Shown in pieces: positions 56,637 to 63,530 of a DNA stretch of 64,000 nt. This DNA is from Escherichia coli phage AZ21. The notes beneath the pieces are model-generated. The model did no database searches. It was not told where the DNA came from and saw only the letters and a list, made by a program, of their open reading frames with translations. A program made the position numbers and the translations under genes. Position 1 is the first letter of the stretch. The number at the start of each line of letters is the position of its first letter. The stretch is taken from the sequence record LC788708.1; one strand, given 5' to 3'.

Positions 56637-58031
56637 ATGTCTTTACAACTATTACGTAATACTCGAATCTTCGTGTCTACGGTTAAGACTGGTCATAATA
56701 AGACCAACACGCAAGAGATTCTAGTTCAGGATGATATTTCTTGGGGTCAGGACAGTAACTCAACAGATATTACTGTTAATGAAGCTGGTCCGCGTCCAAC
56801 TCGTGGTTCTAAACGTTTTAACGACTCTTTAAACGCGGCTGAGTGGAGTTTCTCTACTTACATCCTGCCCTATATCAATAAAGATGATCAGAAGCAAATC
56901 GTTCCTGACTATATGTTATGGCATGCACTTTCTAGTGGTAAAGCTATTAACTTAGAAGGTAATACAGGGGCACACAATAACGAGGCTAACTTCATGGTTA
57001 ACTTCAAAGATAACTCCTATCATGAGTTAGCAATGTTACATATTTATATTCTGACTGATAAAGCATGGAGTTATATCGATTCCTGTCAGATTAATCAGGC
57101 AGAAGTTAACGTTGATATCGAAGATATTGGCCGTGTAACTTGGTCCGGTAATGGTAATCAGCTTATTCCTCTGGATGAGCAACCATTTGACCCAGATGAG
57201 TTAGGTATTGATGATGAAACTTATATGACTATCCAGGGTTCTTATATTAAGAACAAACTAACGATCTTGAAGATCAAGGATATGGATACCAATAAGTCTT
57301 ATGACATACCTATTACTGGTGGTACTTTCACCATTAATAATAACATCACGTATCTAACCCCGAATATTATGTCCCGTGTAAATATTCCGATCGGTTCATT
57401 TACTGGCGCATTTGAACTAACTGGTTCATTAACTGCTTATCTGAATGATAAATCTCTTGGTTCTATGGAGCTGTATAAAGATCTTATCAAAACTCTGAAG
57501 GTAGTTAACCGCTTCGAAATTGCTCTAGTACTTGGTGGTGAATACGATGAAGAACGTCCTGCGGCTATTTTGGTAGCTAAACAAGCACACGTTAATATTC
57601 CTACTATTGAAACTGATGATGTACTTGGTACTTCAGTAGAGTTTAAAGCTATTCCATCTGATCTGGATGCTGGTGATGAAGGTTACTTAGGCTTCTCTAG
57701 TAAATATACCAAAACAACTATTAATAACTTGATTGTTAATGGTGATGGTGCTACTAATGCTGTAACCGCAATTACTGTTAAATCTGCTGGTGATGTTACT
57801 ACAGTAAATAACTCGGCTACTCTTCAAATGAGTGTTGAAATTACTCCTTCTTCCGCAAAGAATAAAGAAGTTACTTGGGCTATCACTGCTGGTGATGCAG
57901 CTACTATCAATGCAGCAGGACTATTAACAGCCCATGCTAGTAAAACAGGTGCGGTAACTGTTGAAGCTACAGCTAAGGATGGTTCTGGAGTTAAAGGTAC
58001 TAAACAGATTACTGTAACAGCAGGTGGTTAA
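56637..58031 (+). CDS. tail tube protein with C-terminal Ig-like (BIG2-type) domain
   Basis: 464 aa; C-terminal Ig-like domain; upstream of chaperone and tape-measure genes. Confidence 0.75.
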   Translation: MSLQLLRNTRIFVSTVKTGHNKTNTQEILVQDDISWGQDSNSTDITVNEAGPRPTRGSKRFNDSLNAAEWSFSTYILPYINKDDQKQIVPDYMLWHALSSGKAINLEGNTGAHNNEANFMVNFKDNSYHELAMLHIYILTDKAWSYIDSCQINQAEVNVDIEDIGRVTWSGNGNQLIPLDEQPFDPDELGIDDETYMTIQGSYIKNKLTILKIKDMDTNKSYDIPITGGTFTINNNITYLTPNIMSRVNIPIGSFTGAFELTGSLTAYLNDKSLGSMELYKDLIKTLKVVNRFEIALVLGGEYDEERPAAILVAKQAHVNIPTIETDDVLGTSVEFKAIPSDLDAGDEGYLGFSSKYTKTTINNLIVNGDGATNAVTAITVKSAGDVTTVNNSATLQMSVEITPSSAKNKEVTWAITAGDAATINAAGLLTAHASKTGAVTVEATAKDGSGVKGTKQITVTAGG

Positions 58032-58035
58032 TTAA

Positions 58036-58935
58036 ATGTACTACTCTCTAATGAGAGAGTCAAAAGTTATAGTTGAGTATGATGGTAGGGCATTTCATTT
58101 TGATGCCCTATCAAACTATGATATACAGACTTCCTACGAGGAATTCAAGACTCTTCGTAGGACTGTTCATCGTAGAACTAACTATGCAGACTCTATTATA
58201 AATGCTCAAACTCCCTCTTCTATCTCTCTAGCCGTAAATTTCAGTAATACTCTTACGGAGGCTAACTTCTTTGAATGGTTAGGTTTTGATAGAAAAGGTA
58301 ATACTTTCTTACTCCCACTATATAGTAGTAATATTGAACCTATTATGTTCAATATCTATATAGTAAACAAAGATAGTAACTGTGTATATTTTGAAAACTG
58401 TTATGTATCTACGGTAGATTTTTCTTTAGATAAGAACATACCAATTCTTAATGTTGGTATTGAGTCTGGGAAATTCTCAGAAGTATCTACCTATAGAGAA
58501 GCAGCTTCTATTATACAGGGTGAAGTAATGTCTTACAGCCCAGTAATAGCTTCTACTAATGGCAGCATCTTACCAGGTCTTATTTCTGCCTCTTTATCTT
58601 TCCAACAGCAGTGTTCCTGGAGAGAGGATAAGAGTGTTTTTGATATAAATAAAATTTATAATAATAAAAGAGCCTATGTAACTGAAATGAATGCTTCGGC
58701 AACCATTTCTCTATACTACTTAAAACGTTTTGCAGGAGATATGGTTTATAATATAGAACCGGAGATAGATATACCTTTAACAATAAGAAATAATAATATT
58801 TCTATAGATTTTCCTTCAGCACGTATTACAAAACGCCTAGATTTCTCAGATGTGTATAGAGTTGAGTGGGATATTATACCTACTGCTTCTTCAGACCCAG
58901 TGAGAATAGATTTCTTTGGAGAAATTAAAAAATGA
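58036..58935 (+). CDS. hypothetical tail-associated protein
   Basis: 299 aa between tail tube and chaperone genes. Confidence 0.4.
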   Translation: MYYSLMRESKVIVEYDGRAFHFDALSNYDIQTSYEEFKTLRRTVHRRTNYADSIINAQTPSSISLAVNFSNTLTEANFFEWLGFDRKGNTFLLPLYSSNIEPIMFNIYIVNKDSNCVYFENCYVSTVDFSLDKNIPILNVGIESGKFSEVSTYREAASIIQGEVMSYSPVIASTNGSILPGLISASLSFQQQCSWREDKSVFDINKIYNNKRAYVTEMNASATISLYYLKRFAGDMVYNIEPEIDIPLTIRNNNISIDFPSARITKRLDFSDVYRVEWDIIPTASSDPVRIDFFGEIKK

Positions 58936-59336
58936 TTAATTTAAAAGATATTACTCTTGATACTCGTACTATTACTCTTTCCTACCCAGGTATGCCGAAC
59001 TTTAAACTAGAACTTAACTATATGTCTCGTGCTACCTCTAAACGTGTTATTTCTTCTGCTAAACGCGATGAATGGGTTAACGGTACTTTGGTTCAGGTAC
59101 AGGATGATGATAAGTTCATTGAAGCCTTTGTTGACGCAGCTATTAAAGGTTGGACTGGTTTGACTGTAGGTGACGTTGAAAAACTAATGCTGATTGAAAC
59201 AGATGCTGATCCTGCTACTGAAGTTCCTTTTAGCCGCGATAATGCTGTAATGCTTATGCAGAACTCTGCTGCGTTTGATTCTTGGATCAACCAGACAGTG
59301 TTCCACTTAGACACTTTTCGTAGCCCAAAAGCGTAA
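58932..59336 (+). CDS. tail assembly chaperone (short form)
   Basis: 134 aa acidic protein immediately upstream of tape measure gene. Confidence 0.45.
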   Translation: MINLKDITLDTRTITLSYPGMPNFKLELNYMSRATSKRVISSAKRDEWVNGTLVQVQDDDKFIEAFVDAAIKGWTGLTVGDVEKLMLIETDADPATEVPFSRDNAVMLMQNSAAFDSWINQTVFHLDTFRSPKA

Positions 59337-59766
59337 AGAACTTCTGGATGCTGTTGCTGATTTTGCAGATAAATGTATTAAGAGCTCAGCATCTAAAATG
59401 ACCAAACAACAATATTTAATACTTTGCGAGTCAATGGGTATAGAGCCTGATCCTAAGGCTATGCCCGTTGAACTTGAGGATTTTCCACCTATTGTATCTA
59501 TTAGTATGAATATTTATAACAGTCTGATTGACTGTTTCATACCGGGTGACTTTCCTATTTTTATAGGTAAGGATAAAGCTGCATTAGGTGTTTTATTTGA
59601 TATTTATGGGATTACTGATCCTATAGAAAAAGAATTTGTTCTACACATTATCAATATATTTGATGCTAAAGCTGTAGACGCTGCACGTAAACATGCTGAG
59701 AAGCATAAACCGCAAAACGGGAGGATCCCTAACGTTAAGCCACATGCTAGATCTCGTGCACGGTAA
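59311..59766 (+). CDS. tail assembly chaperone extension (probably expressed by +1 frameshift from 58932-59336)
   Basis: Frame open from 59311, overlapping the upstream ORF end; no convincing RBS before the first ATG at 59398. Confidence 0.35.
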   Translation, partial: TLFVAQKRKELLDAVADFADKCIKSSASKMTKQQYLILCESMGIEPDPKAMPVELEDFPPIVSISMNIYNSLIDCFIPGDFPIFIGKDKAALGVLFDIYGITDPIEKEFVLHIINIFDAKAVDAARKHAEKHKPQNGRIPNVKPHARSRAR

Positions 59767-59801
59767 AAGTTTCCTCCAATGGGCGTTCCACGATGAGGCT
59801 T

Positions 59802-59833
59802 GGCTCTGGGTGATTTGCCCAGAGCCTTTTTTA
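59802..59833 (+). terminator. rho-independent terminator
   Basis: GGCTCTGGG-TGATTTG-CCCAGAGCC then TTTTTT. Confidence 0.75.
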
Positions 59834-59849
59834 TTGGGAAAAATAAAAC

Positions 59850-62800
59850 ATGACTGATAAGCTAATACGAGAATTACTAATAGACGTTAAACAGAAGGGG
59901 GCAACTCGTACTGCAAAGTCTATTGAAAACGTATCTGATGCGTTGGAAAATGCTGCTGCTGCTTCCGAACTGACAAATGAGCAGTTAGGTAAAATGCCCA
60001 GAACTCTTTATTCCATTGAGAGGGCAGCAGACAGAGCAGCGAAAAGTCTTACTAAAATGCAAGCTAGTAGGGGTATGGCTGGTATCACTAAATCCATTGA
60101 TGGTATTGGTGATAAGCTAGATTACCTGGCTATCCAACTTATTGAAGTAACAGATAAACTAGAAATTGGATTTGATGGAGTTTCTAGATCTGTTAAAACA
60201 ATGGGTAATGATGTTGCAGCTGCAACAGAAAAAGTCCAGGATAGATTATATGATACTAATAGAGCATTAGGTGGTACAGCTAGAGGTTTTAACGACACTG
60301 CTGGTGCCGCTGGTAGAGCTTCTAGAGCTATTGGTAATACTTCTGGTTCAGCACGTGGTGCAACTCGTGATTTTGCGGCAATGGCTAAGATCGGTGGTAG
60401 TCTACCTATTATGTACGCAGCTCTTGCTTCCAACATCTTCGTTTTGCAATCAGCATTTGAACAACTTAAACTAGGTGATCAGCTAAATCGTCTAGAAAAA
60501 TTTGGTGTTATAGTAGGTACTCAGACAGGTACTCCTGTTCAGACCCTTGCTAGATCACTACAAGAAGCTGCTGGATATGCTATTTCTTTTGAGGAAGCAA
60601 TGAGACAGGCATCTTCAGCATCTGCTTATGGATTTGATGCTGAACAGCTTAATAAATTTGGTTTAGTAGCTCGTCGTGCGGCTGCTGTTCTTGGCGTTGA
60701 TATGACTGATGCACTTAACCGTGTAATTAAGGGCGTATCTAAACAAGAAATCGAACTTCTGGATGAACTTGGTGTCACCATCCGTCTTAATGACGCATAC
60801 GCTGATTATGTTAAACAGTTAAATGCTGCAAACACAGGTATAACATATAATGTTAATAGTCTTACCACTTTCCAGAAGCAACAAGCATACGCTAATGCGG
60901 TAATTGCTGAATCTACTAAGCGTTTCGGCTACCTAGATGAAGTACTACGTGCAACTCCATGGGAGCAGTTTGCTGCTAATGCAGATGCTGCACTAAGAAA
61001 AATACAACAAGCTGCTGCTAAGTATTTAGGGCCAGTAATTGATGCTATCAACACAGTATTTTATACGTCTCAGGCTTCTATATCTGCTGAGGCAGCTAGG
61101 GCTCAAGAAAAAACTAATAGACAGATAGACCCTACCAACGTTGGTGCTGTTGCTTTAAGTTTAGCTGCTTCTGAAGAAGGCTATAATAAAGCTCTAGATA
61201 TGTATAAGGAATCTCTTGATAAGCGTAATAAGCTAAAATCTGAGTTTGATAAACGAATGGAACAAGCAGATTTCTATACAAAATTAGCTATACGTCAAGT
61301 TGGTGAAGGTATTCCTATTGGTATTGCAGCAGCAGGTGCTTCGGAGGCCAATAAGCAATTTGTAGCAGAAACTGCAGCTATGGGTCTACAAGTAACTAGA
61401 CTTGGTAAGGAAGTAGAGGATTCTACAGAGAATCTCAATGCTTGGAAATCAGCGTATCAAGCTGCTGGGGCTGCTGCTGCAAATGCTAGTCCAGAGTTTC
61501 AGAAGCAAATTAATCTCCAGAGAGATACTACTGATCCTGATGCTGTATACGATTTTAACTCTACTGTATTAAAAGGACTAACTGAGCAGCAGAAAGCGTA
61601 CAATCAGACTAAGAAAACTGCTAGTGACTTAGCTAATGACTTTCAAAATATAGCTAGTAGCACAGATACTGCTGCTAAAACCAGTGCAACTTTTGAAGAG
61701 GTAATTAAAAACATATCGTCTCTATCCGCAGGAACTGGTAAGAGTGCTGATGATTATGTTAAAAGCCTCAACTTAGGGTTTAACACTCTGTCTGAAATGA
61801 AAACTGCGTCTCAGGCCTTATCTGAGTACGTTAAACTAACGGGTAATGAGACTAAGAACCAGTTAGCAGTTCAACAGAAGATAGCGGATGTATATAACCA
61901 AACTAAGGATAAAGAAAAAGCACAGGAAGCTGGTAGACGTTTAGAGTTGCAACAGTTAGAAGAGCAAGAAACTGCTTTACACCGTGTTCTTCAAACAAAC
62001 CAGGGAAATAAAGCTGTTGAAAAAGAAATTGAAAAAATTCAGCTGGAGAAACTTAAACTTACTAATCAGGGTATGGAGGCTCAGAAGAAGGTTAAGGATT
62101 ACACAGATAAAATTCTGGGTGTAGATCGTGAGATAGCCCTCTTAAATAACCGTACTATGACAGATACTCAGTATCGTCTAGCACAGTTAAATCTTGAATT
62201 GACCGTTGAAAAAGAGAAGTACGAATGGTACACAAAACAAGCTGATAAACAGAAAGAGGCAGAACAGTCTAGACGTGCTCAAGCTCAAATTGAACGTGAA
62301 ATCTGGAAATTCCGCCAAGATCAGATTGCTTCAATGGCTGCTGGTAGAGAGGAAGAACAGCAAAGACAATTTACTGCTAAACCATTAATGGGAAATGCGG
62401 AGCGCCTACAGGAACAGCTAAAATTATATGAAGACTTAAAGCAGAAAACATTAGGTAATGCTGCGGCACAAGCGGAATATAATAAAAAGATAGCTGAAAC
62501 TAGGGCACAACTAGCAGGTTTAAGGGCACAGAGAAATGCGGAGATGCAAGCTTCTGTTGGATCTTCTTTAGGTGCTGTGTACACCCCTACAACTGGACTA
62601 TCTGGAGAAGATAAAGATTTTGCTGATATGGGAAATAGGATGGCTTCTTATGACCAGGCAATATCTAAACTATCCGAGCTAAACTCTGAAGCAACCGCTG
62701 TAGCTCAAAGCATGGGTAACCTAACCAATGCTATGATTCAGTTCTCTATGGGGTCTTTAGACACGACTTCCACGATCGCAGTAGGTATGCAAGCTGTATC

Positions 62801-63530
62801 CTCTATGATTCAATATAGTACTAGTCAACAGGTTAGTGCAATTGATCAGGCTATCGCAGCAGAGCAGAAACGTGATGGTAAATCAGAAGCATCTAAAGCT
62901 AAGTTGAAGAAGTTGGAAGCTGAAAAGCTGAAGATTCAACAAGACGCAGCTAAGAAGCAGATTATCATCCAAACTGCGGTAGCAGTAATGCAAGCGGCAA
63001 CAGCTGTACCGTACCCGTTCTCTATTCCTTTGATGGTGGCGGCAGGTTTGGCAGGTGCCTTAGCTCTTGCTCAAGCATCTTCTGCATCTGGCATGTCTTC
63101 TATTGCAGATTCTGGGGCGGATACAACTAGTTATTTAACCTTAGGAGAACGTCAGAAGAATATAGATGTGTCCATGTCTGCTAATGCTGGTGAATTATCT
63201 TATATTCGTGGCGATAAAGGCATAGGTGGTGCTAACTCTTTCGTTCCCCGTGCTGAGGGTGGTAATATGTACCCTGGGGTTAGCTATCAAATGGGTGAGC
63301 ATGGTACAGAAGTAGTTACCCCTATGGTTCCTATGAAAGCTACACCTAATGATGAGCTAAAAATCTCATCTAACTCAACTTCAGGAAGACCTATCATCTT
63401 GAATATTAGTGCTATGGATGCTGCAAGTTTTAGAGAGTTTGCTTCTAGTAATAGTAGTGCTCTAAGAGACGCAGTAGAATTAGCTCTGAATGAGAACGGT
63501 GCTAGTCTGAAAACATTAGGAAATTCTTAA
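59850..63530 (+). CDS. tail tape measure protein (pb2-like)
   Basis: 1226 aa, Ala/Gln-rich coiled-coil central region, TM-like segment near C-terminus. Confidence 0.85.
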   Translation: MTDKLIRELLIDVKQKGATRTAKSIENVSDALENAAAASELTNEQLGKMPRTLYSIERAADRAAKSLTKMQASRGMAGITKSIDGIGDKLDYLAIQLIEVTDKLEIGFDGVSRSVKTMGNDVAAATEKVQDRLYDTNRALGGTARGFNDTAGAAGRASRAIGNTSGSARGATRDFAAMAKIGGSLPIMYAALASNIFVLQSAFEQLKLGDQLNRLEKFGVIVGTQTGTPVQTLARSLQEAAGYAISFEEAMRQASSASAYGFDAEQLNKFGLVARRAAAVLGVDMTDALNRVIKGVSKQEIELLDELGVTIRLNDAYADYVKQLNAANTGITYNVNSLTTFQKQQAYANAVIAESTKRFGYLDEVLRATPWEQFAANADAALRKIQQAAAKYLGPVIDAINTVFYTSQASISAEAARAQEKTNRQIDPTNVGAVALSLAASEEGYNKALDMYKESLDKRNKLKSEFDKRMEQADFYTKLAIRQVGEGIPIGIAAAGASEANKQFVAETAAMGLQVTRLGKEVEDSTENLNAWKSAYQAAGAAAANASPEFQKQINLQRDTTDPDAVYDFNSTVLKGLTEQQKAYNQTKKTASDLANDFQNIASSTDTAAKTSATFEEVIKNISSLSAGTGKSADDYVKSLNLGFNTLSEMKTASQALSEYVKLTGNETKNQLAVQQKIADVYNQTKDKEKAQEAGRRLELQQLEEQETALHRVLQTNQGNKAVEKEIEKIQLEKLKLTNQGMEAQKKVKDYTDKILGVDREIALLNNRTMTDTQYRLAQLNLELTVEKEKYEWYTKQADKQKEAEQSRRAQAQIEREIWKFRQDQIASMAAGREEEQQRQFTAKPLMGNAERLQEQLKLYEDLKQKTLGNAAAQAEYNKKIAETRAQLAGLRAQRNAEMQASVGSSLGAVYTPTTGLSGEDKDFADMGNRMASYDQAISKLSELNSEATAVAQSMGNLTNAMIQFSMGSLDTTSTIAVGMQAVSSMIQYSTSQQVSAIDQAIAAEQKRDGKSEASKAKLKKLEAEKLKIQQDAAKKQIIIQTAVAVMQAATAVPYPFSIPLMVAAGLAGALALAQASSASGMSSIADSGADTTSYLTLGERQKNIDVSMSANAGELSYIRGDKGIGGANSFVPRAEGGNMYPGVSYQMGEHGTEVVTPMVPMKATPNDELKISSNSTSGRPIILNISAMDAASFREFASSNSSALRDAVELALNENGASLKTLGNS

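Follow-up and report, generated by a model that had tools for sequence, protein, structure and literature searches.

The window analysed here, a stretch of 64,000 nucleotides (nt) from Escherichia coli phage AZ21 (LC788708.1), carries upstream of its tape-measure gene two overlapping open reading frames (ORFs), which an earlier sequence-only reading had proposed to be chaperone genes joined by a programmed +1 frameshift. By sequence identity the window is that of a Tequintavirus (T5-like phage): a 961-bp query over the region matches E. coli phage AZ23 at 100% identity and many Tequintavirus genomes at 97–98%, with 444 matching phage records in all.

The first frame, ORF1 (58932–59336), encodes the short 'G-like' tail assembly (tape-measure) chaperone, a T5.143 homologue of 134 amino acids (aa) and 15.1 kDa, which starts at ATG 58932 and stops at the TAA of 59334–59336. 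The second, ORF2, is annotated at 59398–59766 and encodes the 'T-like' C-terminal domain, a T5.142 homologue of 122 aa. The +1 frame in which ORF2 lies is closed by a TAG at 59308–59310 and is then open from 59311 to the TAA of 59764–59766, as the sequence-only reading had it. Both frames are open in the 26-nt overlap 59311–59336, inside which the shift must fall, and a +1 join anywhere in this overlap yields a product of 277 aa. The letters that had been given for the end of ORF1 (CCC AAA AGC GTA A) are correct, but their grouping into triplets is not that of the ORF1 frame, which ends GAC ACT TTT CGT AGC CCA AAA GCG TAA.

The proposed shift site, UUU_CGU (59316–59321), contains the TTTCG block that is invariant among relatives. 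Between it and the annotated start of ORF2 lie 26 linker codons of the +1 frame (VAQKRKELLDAVADFADKCIKSSASK; 59320–59397), which include no start codon and are predicted to be translated only within the frameshifted product. That product, join(58932..59318, 59320..59766), would have 277 aa and 31.1 kDa, with ...FHLDTF followed by VAQKRKELL... at the junction; peptides spanning the predicted UUU +1 junction would be DTFVAQKRKELL after digestion with Asp-N and DNAVMLMQNSAAFDSWINQTVFHLDTFVAQK after digestion with trypsin. All of these features are on the plus strand. We put the probability that a +1 frameshift product joining ORF1 and ORF2 is made at roughly 80%, the support for this reading being comparative throughout. 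The arrangement first suggested, in which a short chaperone and a +1-frameshifted version of it (about 277 aa) precede the tape-measure gene, gains support from a conserved frame, a coding linker and the lack of a conserved start for ORF2.

Family profiles place the two ORFs together. ORF2 corresponds to phrog_3914 and to positions 170–258 of phrog_313, a single 258-position profile that spans ORF1 and ORF2, while close homologues of ORF1 carry Pfam PF27119 (Phage_YdaY). The fold of ORF1 may be tail-assembly-chaperone-like. Sequence searches of the PDB, a local Pfam copy and NCBIfam returned nothing significant for ORF1 or ORF2.

Conservation of the overlap and the linker

The +1-class sample comprises 28 loci, drawn from about 12 Demerecviridae genera and from metagenomic relatives. 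The genomes compared were those of T5, MM-1, Lindwurm, KPP2018, RN29, two Sugarlandvirus phages, Enterobacter phage KKP_3711, Pantoea phage AAS21, Serratia phage Slocum, Pectobacterium phage My1, two Priunavirus phages, Proteus phage Stubb and eight Vibrio phages from several clades. Every Demerecviridae genome compared has ORF2 shifted by +1 with respect to ORF1, and the two overlap by 14–122 nt. This relation holds in Tequintavirus, Epseptimavirus, Sugarlandvirus, Priunavirus, Novosibvirus, Myunavirus, Pogseptimavirus, Cetovirus and Jesfedecavirus, as well as in Enterobacter, Pantoea and Serratia phages and in five metagenomic relatives. The conservation of the overlap, which the sequence-only reading had left to be checked in relatives, thus extends to 28 of 28 +1-class loci, among which the identity of the fused protein to that of the window falls as low as 26–34%. 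Matches in tblastn that span both halves always come in two pieces, in different frames. The +1 arrangement is far beyond chance. We note that in one metagenomic relative, L030 (ENA contig_25402, 2123–2520), ORF1 is broken by an extra frame change upstream of TTT_CGT, either through an assembly error or through a second recoding event.

The codons that precede the annotated ATG of ORF2 are conserved as protein. When the frame extended to 59311 was used in tblastn, Klebsiella (53% identity), Vibrio (31–41%) and Proteus (34%) phage sequences aligned from query residues 1–4 onward, and an alignment of the conceptual fusions shows the conserved linker motifs FAKQ and SK-x-TKEQYL. Among five close relatives, differences in the linker fall on codon positions 1, 2 and 3 in the numbers 24, 8 and 48, and 44 of the codon changes are synonymous against 16 that are nonsynonymous, a pattern shared by the bodies of the two ORFs. 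From the shift site to the first ATG there are 23–47 codons, with no stop in the ORF2 frame in any of 13 lineages, against 1–3 and 2–7 stops in the two other frames; in shuffled sequences the same stretch would stay open with a probability of 0.03–0.23 per genome. In addition, linker residues 2–20 form a helix in the AF2 prediction, with a predicted local distance difference test score (pLDDT) of 81–86. These comparisons identify the linker as coding sequence.

The UUU_CGN motif

With 15–17 diverse sequences anchored at the junction, TTTCG is the sole invariant nucleotide block, and the sixth base is T, A or C. An in-frame TTT_CGN is found inside the overlap in all 28 of the +1-class loci; CGT is used in most, CGA in the Vibrio clades and the metagenomic locus L031, and CGC in L032 and L034. 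The codon before TTT is free to vary (ACT, ACC, ACG, TCA, TCC, TCT, AAC, GGG or CGA), and the short-form tails past CGN are unrelated in sequence and 0–12 codons long, which places the stop 1–13 codons after UUU. The narrowest overlaps, in My1 and Vibrio phage 70E35-1, measure only 14 nt and read xxC TTT CGT TAA. This length confines the shift to three sense codons, among which cognate re-pairing is possible for UUU to UUC only.

The sequence-only reading had implied a shift farther downstream, at CCC AAA AGC. A +1 shift in that part of ORF1 would use CCA AAA GCG TAA, either by a slip of tRNA-Lys from AAA to AAG or with stimulation by the stop codon. AAA_G does permit cognate re-pairing of tRNA-Lys, the stop two codons past AAA could slow ribosomes, and the CCA AAA GCG site lies within the 26-nt overlap. 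However, the motif is not conserved: CCA is replaced by TCA in T5, MM-1 and Lindwurm, all of the same genus Tequintavirus, Sugarlandvirus has AAA_CAG, and the other genera end in the unrelated tails described above, with a last codon before the stop that differs in nearly every genus and, in My1 and 70E35-1, with no codon at all between CGT and the stop. We therefore consider a shift at the 3' end of ORF1 quite improbable; the conserved site is TTT CGT (59316–59321), 4–5 codons before the stop.

The same stretch contains C_CCA_AAA (59324–59330), in the ORF1 frame a formal X_XXY_YYZ heptamer, at which a canonical −1 shift would add a short tail to ORF1. This reading is the least credible of those considered: the −1 frame runs into a stop after about 23 codons without leading into ORF2, the heptamer is disrupted in T5, MM-1 and Lindwurm (TCA) and absent elsewhere, and the −1 extension is not conserved in relatives. 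A third possibility is that the T-run itself is used by another route: the ribosome could shift by −2, as it does in phage Mu, or the polymerase could slip and leave one U out of the transcript. A −2 shift ends in the same frame as a +1 shift, and the run in the window comprises four T (59315–59318); in most genera, however, it has three T only (AAC TTT CG, ACG TTT CG, TCA TTT CG), too short for polymerase slippage, and −2 re-pairing onto ACU, CGU or CAU would be non-cognate for tRNA-Phe. Either route is very doubtful.

In the 38 window ORFs of at least 150 aa, TTT followed by a codon with an initial pyrimidine is less frequent than expected (TTT_Cnn, 35 observed and 54 expected; TTT_Tnn, 31 and 54; TTT_CGN, 4 and 9.5), and TTC in the same context is more frequent (TTC_Cnn, 56 observed and 38 expected; TTC_Tnn, 55 and 37.5). 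The deficit of UUU–pyrimidine pairs and the surplus of UUC are weakly consistent with avoidance of +1-prone UUU_Y.

Structured RNA was sought around the site as well. The consensus structure of 17 sequences has 0 pairs (RNAalifold), the folds of the individual genomes are dissimilar, and no Rfam family matches within 58800–59900. A local RNA hairpin does occur in the window at 59345–59395, 24 nt downstream of the shift site, with a folding free energy (dG) of −20.7 kcal/mol and a z-score of −2.3; it was rejected as a stimulator, as it is not kept in other genera. The window also contains a cluster of six tRNA genes between 12768 and 17218 (Arg-TCT, Ser-GCT, two Met-CAT, Leu-TAA and Tyr-GTA), and none for tRNA-Phe or tRNA-Arg(ACG).

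Distant homologues and the start of ORF2

A HMMER search with the extended ORF2 against 1.84 billion cluster representatives gave 144 homologues, and the DNA of eleven was compared. All 144 are shorter than 180 aa except two repeat artefacts, P0032 (1455 aa) and P0160 (554 aa), which were considered as fusions and set aside as chance matches driven by repeats; P0012, P0018 and P0010, also looked at as fusions, were discarded, as they come from a single assembly full of indels. ORF2 is in the +1 frame in five of the eleven loci, where the site reads TTT_CGT, TTT_CGA or TTT_CGC, and in the −1 frame in the other six. Upstream ORFs of both classes carry PF27119, and the −1-class loci, too, sit upstream of a tape-measure gene.

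Four of the six −1 loci (L028, L033, L036 and L037) have the canonical heptamer A_AAU_UUU, for example GG[A AAT TTT] ACG, which lies on Asn-Phe codons homologous to the Thr-Phe codons of T5. The remaining two (L029 and L035) read [C/G]TT_TTC_AAC_AAA, with no canonical heptamer. The residue after the Phe is variable in the −1 class, being Thr, Ser or Asn in the short form and Tyr, Phe or Gln in the long form. The invariant CG of the +1 class is thus not accounted for by protein constraint and looks like selection on the nucleotide motif itself. Moreover, the frame of ORF2 has changed between lineages and the junction has been kept, so that fusion by frameshifting appears to be the conserved feature. 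Judged from these alignments, the −1/+1 pattern is as would be expected of a G/GT-type recoding pair, and is hard to square with two independent genes.

The alternative, in line with current database annotation, is two independent genes, with ORF2 started at ATG 59398 by weak initiation, or by re-initiation after 59336, and no fusion made. This ATG is the first ATG, GTG or TTG of the +1 frame in the window. The sequence-only reading had found its ribosome-binding site unconvincing, and we agree: the 20 nt before it (ttaagagctcagcatctaaa) offer only AAGAG, 13 nt upstream, a poor Shine–Dalgarno sequence. Nor is there a Shine–Dalgarno sequence before the first ORF2 ATG in any of the 13 lineages. 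At the position of the Met of 59398, Sugarlandvirus and Enterobacter phages have Ile, Pantoea and Serratia phages Val, and several Vibrio phages Leu or Phe; in phages without the aligned Met the first ATG falls inside the conserved YLxxCExxG domain. The starts assigned by gene calling are widely scattered across 146 family representatives, and those chosen by annotators are ATG, GTG or TTG codons, some of them within the overlap. An independent ORF2 would also leave unaccounted for the upstream codons, which are free of stops, conserved as protein and vary like coding sequence, and the canonical −1 heptamers at the ORF1/ORF2 junction of the distant relatives.

Several observations nonetheless weigh against a frameshifted product, and some of them speak for the independent gene. 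The Met is at the T5 position in about one-third of the family representatives (53/146), which makes some internal initiation possible. All of the approximately 22 GenBank and RefSeq records inspected, including annotations of the Center for Phage Technology (CPT locus tags), have two separate coding sequences and no joined one; in the T5 RefSeq record, T5.143 and T5.142 are two separate tail assembly chaperones without a join. T5.142 expressed alone from a plasmid is stable, and it binds and activates pSlfn5, a tRNase of bacterial Schlafen defence (PMC13056530), so ORF2 is at least viable as a protein by itself. A passage in PMC6256483, citing Zivanovic et al. 2014, says that no frameshift signal is predicted for the chaperones of T5 and Sugarland. 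Among the 144 cluster representatives no natural fusion of ORF1 and ORF2 in one frame occurs, and no conserved upstream Shine–Dalgarno-like or purine-rich element or downstream structure was found at the junction. Finally, CGT is a major codon of E. coli and accounts for 68 of the 147 Arg codons in the window's late genes, more than any other, which makes a slow or 'hungry' A site inapplicable as a rationale for the shift, and that idea was dropped. On balance, the replaced ATG, the coding linker and the −1 heptamers make two independent genes unlikely, and we retain the +1 fusion as the reading to be explained.

Proposed mechanism, precedents and genomic setting

In the proposed mechanism, ORF1 and ORF2 would be a chaperone pair of the lambda G/GT type with a single translation start at 58932. 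Most ribosomes would stop at the TAA of 59334–59336 and release the 15-kDa short form, and a minority would shift +1 at UUU_CGU (59316–59321). While the A site is empty, the peptidyl-tRNA-Phe in the P site (anticodon GAA) would slip from UUU (59316–18) to UUC (59317–19), trading a G:U wobble pair for a Watson–Crick G:C pair. C59319 would be skipped, and decoding would resume at GUA (59320–22) and run to 59766, giving the 31-kDa fusion with the T5.142-like domain. On the lambda model, the N-terminal domain common to both forms would coat the tape-measure protein, and recruitment of the tail tube protein would fall to the C-terminal extension of the rare long form. With no conserved stimulator, only a few per cent of ribosomes would be expected to shift, a low efficiency that would fit a G:GT-like ratio. 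We infer the P-site slip from the sequence together with a review's statement on UUU_Ynn, the influenza cassette and the amalgavirus consensus, all of which are discussed below; how often the shift happens and how the two domains divide their labour are likewise best taken as predictions.

A frameshift in the tail assembly chaperone genes is conserved among long-tailed phages, with lambda gpG/gpGT as the example (Xu, Hendrix and Duda 2004, in PMC5009743). Like lambda G/GT, the pair described here consists of two overlapping ORFs that directly precede the tape-measure gene, the second ORF lacks its own start, and an abundant short form and a rare, C-terminally extended form would be expected. 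The arrangement differs from lambda in the direction of the shift, +1 and not −1, in the use of UUU_CGN instead of an X_XXY_YYZ heptamer leading into ORF2, and in the p140 gene, which sits between the tail tube gene and the chaperones. No sequence similarity to lambda G or T was detected with the local Pfam copy. The −1 metagenomic loci (L028, L033, L036, L037, L029 and L035) are distant homologues of the pair, with the same C-terminal Asn/Thr-Phe junction in ORF1; there the slippery sites are A_AAU_UUU or [C/G]UU_UUC_AAC_AAA, whereas ORF2 of the window is in the +1 frame.

The motif itself has precedents on eukaryotic ribosomes. UCC_UUU_CGU is the established +1 site of influenza A virus PA-X (PMC5009743), and UUU_CGN is the +1 consensus of plant amalgaviruses (PMC5052127). 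The window shares with them the in-frame UUU_CGN core, the same proposed tRNA-Phe slip from UUU to UUC, the lack of an evident stimulatory structure and the low expected efficiency. Those sites act on eukaryotic ribosomes, for which CGU is rare; in the phage, decoding is by bacterial ribosomes, CGU is used more than any other Arg codon, and the preceding codon varies, unlike the UCC of the minimal influenza cassette.

On bacterial ribosomes, UUU_Ynn is described as especially +1-prone and as the likely site of the YopN-TyeA fusion (PMC5009743). As in E. coli argI (Fu and Parker 1994) and Yersinia YopN-TyeA, UUU is followed by a pyrimidine, the ribosome is bacterial and a stop codon is not needed (PMC5009743); as in YopN-TyeA, two adjacent ORFs are fused. 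The argI shift is an error-level event, whereas the site described here is kept family-wide, with the next codon limited to CGN. Other non-canonical recoding in bacteria and phages differs more. E. coli prfB uses CUU_UGA with a Shine–Dalgarno-like stimulator 3 nt upstream, whereas UUU_CGU has neither an A-site stop nor a Shine–Dalgarno-like stimulator; the Mu chaperone shift is −2 and thus of another direction; and the +1 shift of SPP1 gp17.1* concerns a tail tube protein, not a chaperone.

Taken together, these comparisons lead us to a broader proposal, which we hold tentatively and as a little more apt to fail than to stand. UUU_CGN may be a minimal +1 cassette that works without a stimulator on bacterial and eukaryotic ribosomes alike, and that has been used throughout the diversification of the Demerecviridae after a switch between −1 and +1 on the same Phe codon. 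The natural form of T5.142 sensed by pSlfn5 might then be the rare 31-kDa T5.143–T5.142 fusion. In a 2026 Nature Microbiology article, T5.142 is treated as a free 122-aa protein that triggers the pSlfn5 tRNase, frameshifting is nowhere mentioned, and the pSlfn5 escape mutations D18G, D68G and I72T lie in T5.142 (PMC13056530).

In existing protein collections the predicted fusion leaves no trace: a collection of about 15 billion proteins contains none of its seven T5 junction variants, and a protein search with an artificial fused sequence gave no match. The literature found under the term UUU_CGN concerns eukaryotic viruses or genes only. What is new is therefore a candidate chaperone frameshift of the G/GT type that would be +1, at a motif hitherto tied to eukaryotic viruses, of which we found no earlier mention in the literature within reach. 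T5 is a classical model phage whose relatives are widely sequenced and used for therapy. If the reading is true, a missing gene product would be added to hundreds of genome records, and the published view of T5 as having no frameshift signal would be revised, the T5 family obeying the near-universal G/GT rule via a +1 site. The UUU_CGN +1 motif would also gain a natural bacterial example, validated by phylogeny, and the switch of direction at one codon would make it a good model for the question of why UUU_CGN is shifty where CGU is not rare. Whether ORF2 is made solely by frameshifting determines how abundant the real pSlfn5 trigger is, when it appears and in what form.

The tail module that surrounds the pair has the order major capsid, head–tail connectors, pb6-like protein, p140, ORF1, ORF2 and tape-measure gene, and the gene order of T5 around the chaperones is the same. 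The pb6-like tail tube protein gene occupies 56637–58031. The gene for the baseplate tube protein p140 follows at 58036–58935 on the plus strand (PF23779 Baseplate_Tube_p140, E = 9e-140; phrog_3889), and its stop shares the sequence ATGA (58932–58935) with the start of ORF1, an overlap that suggests translational coupling of the chaperone to p140. The p140 gene anchors the place of the chaperone pair within the module. The tape-measure gene (59850–63530, plus strand), identified from the ORF list and the annotation of relatives, encodes a pb2 homologue of 1226 aa, the presumed client of the chaperones.

Between the stop of ORF2 and the ATG of the tape-measure gene lies a strong intrinsic terminator (59802–59835), an 11-bp stem GGCTCTGGGTGATTTGCCCAGAGCC followed by TTTTTTATT, which suggests attenuated read-through into the tape-measure gene; a terminator is annotated at the same position in the Lindwurm, PR1, Slocum, Sealy and T5 records. 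In T5 (NC_005859, L009), the endonuclease gene T5.141 (95777–96529) sits between the second chaperone ORF and pb2, and at the place of this insertion the window has a spacer of 83 bp only (59767–59849). A 54-aa ORF at 59693–59857 overlaps the end of ORF2 and the terminator and is probably spurious; in phage MM-1, a coding sequence for a hypothetical protein is annotated over part of the homologous region.

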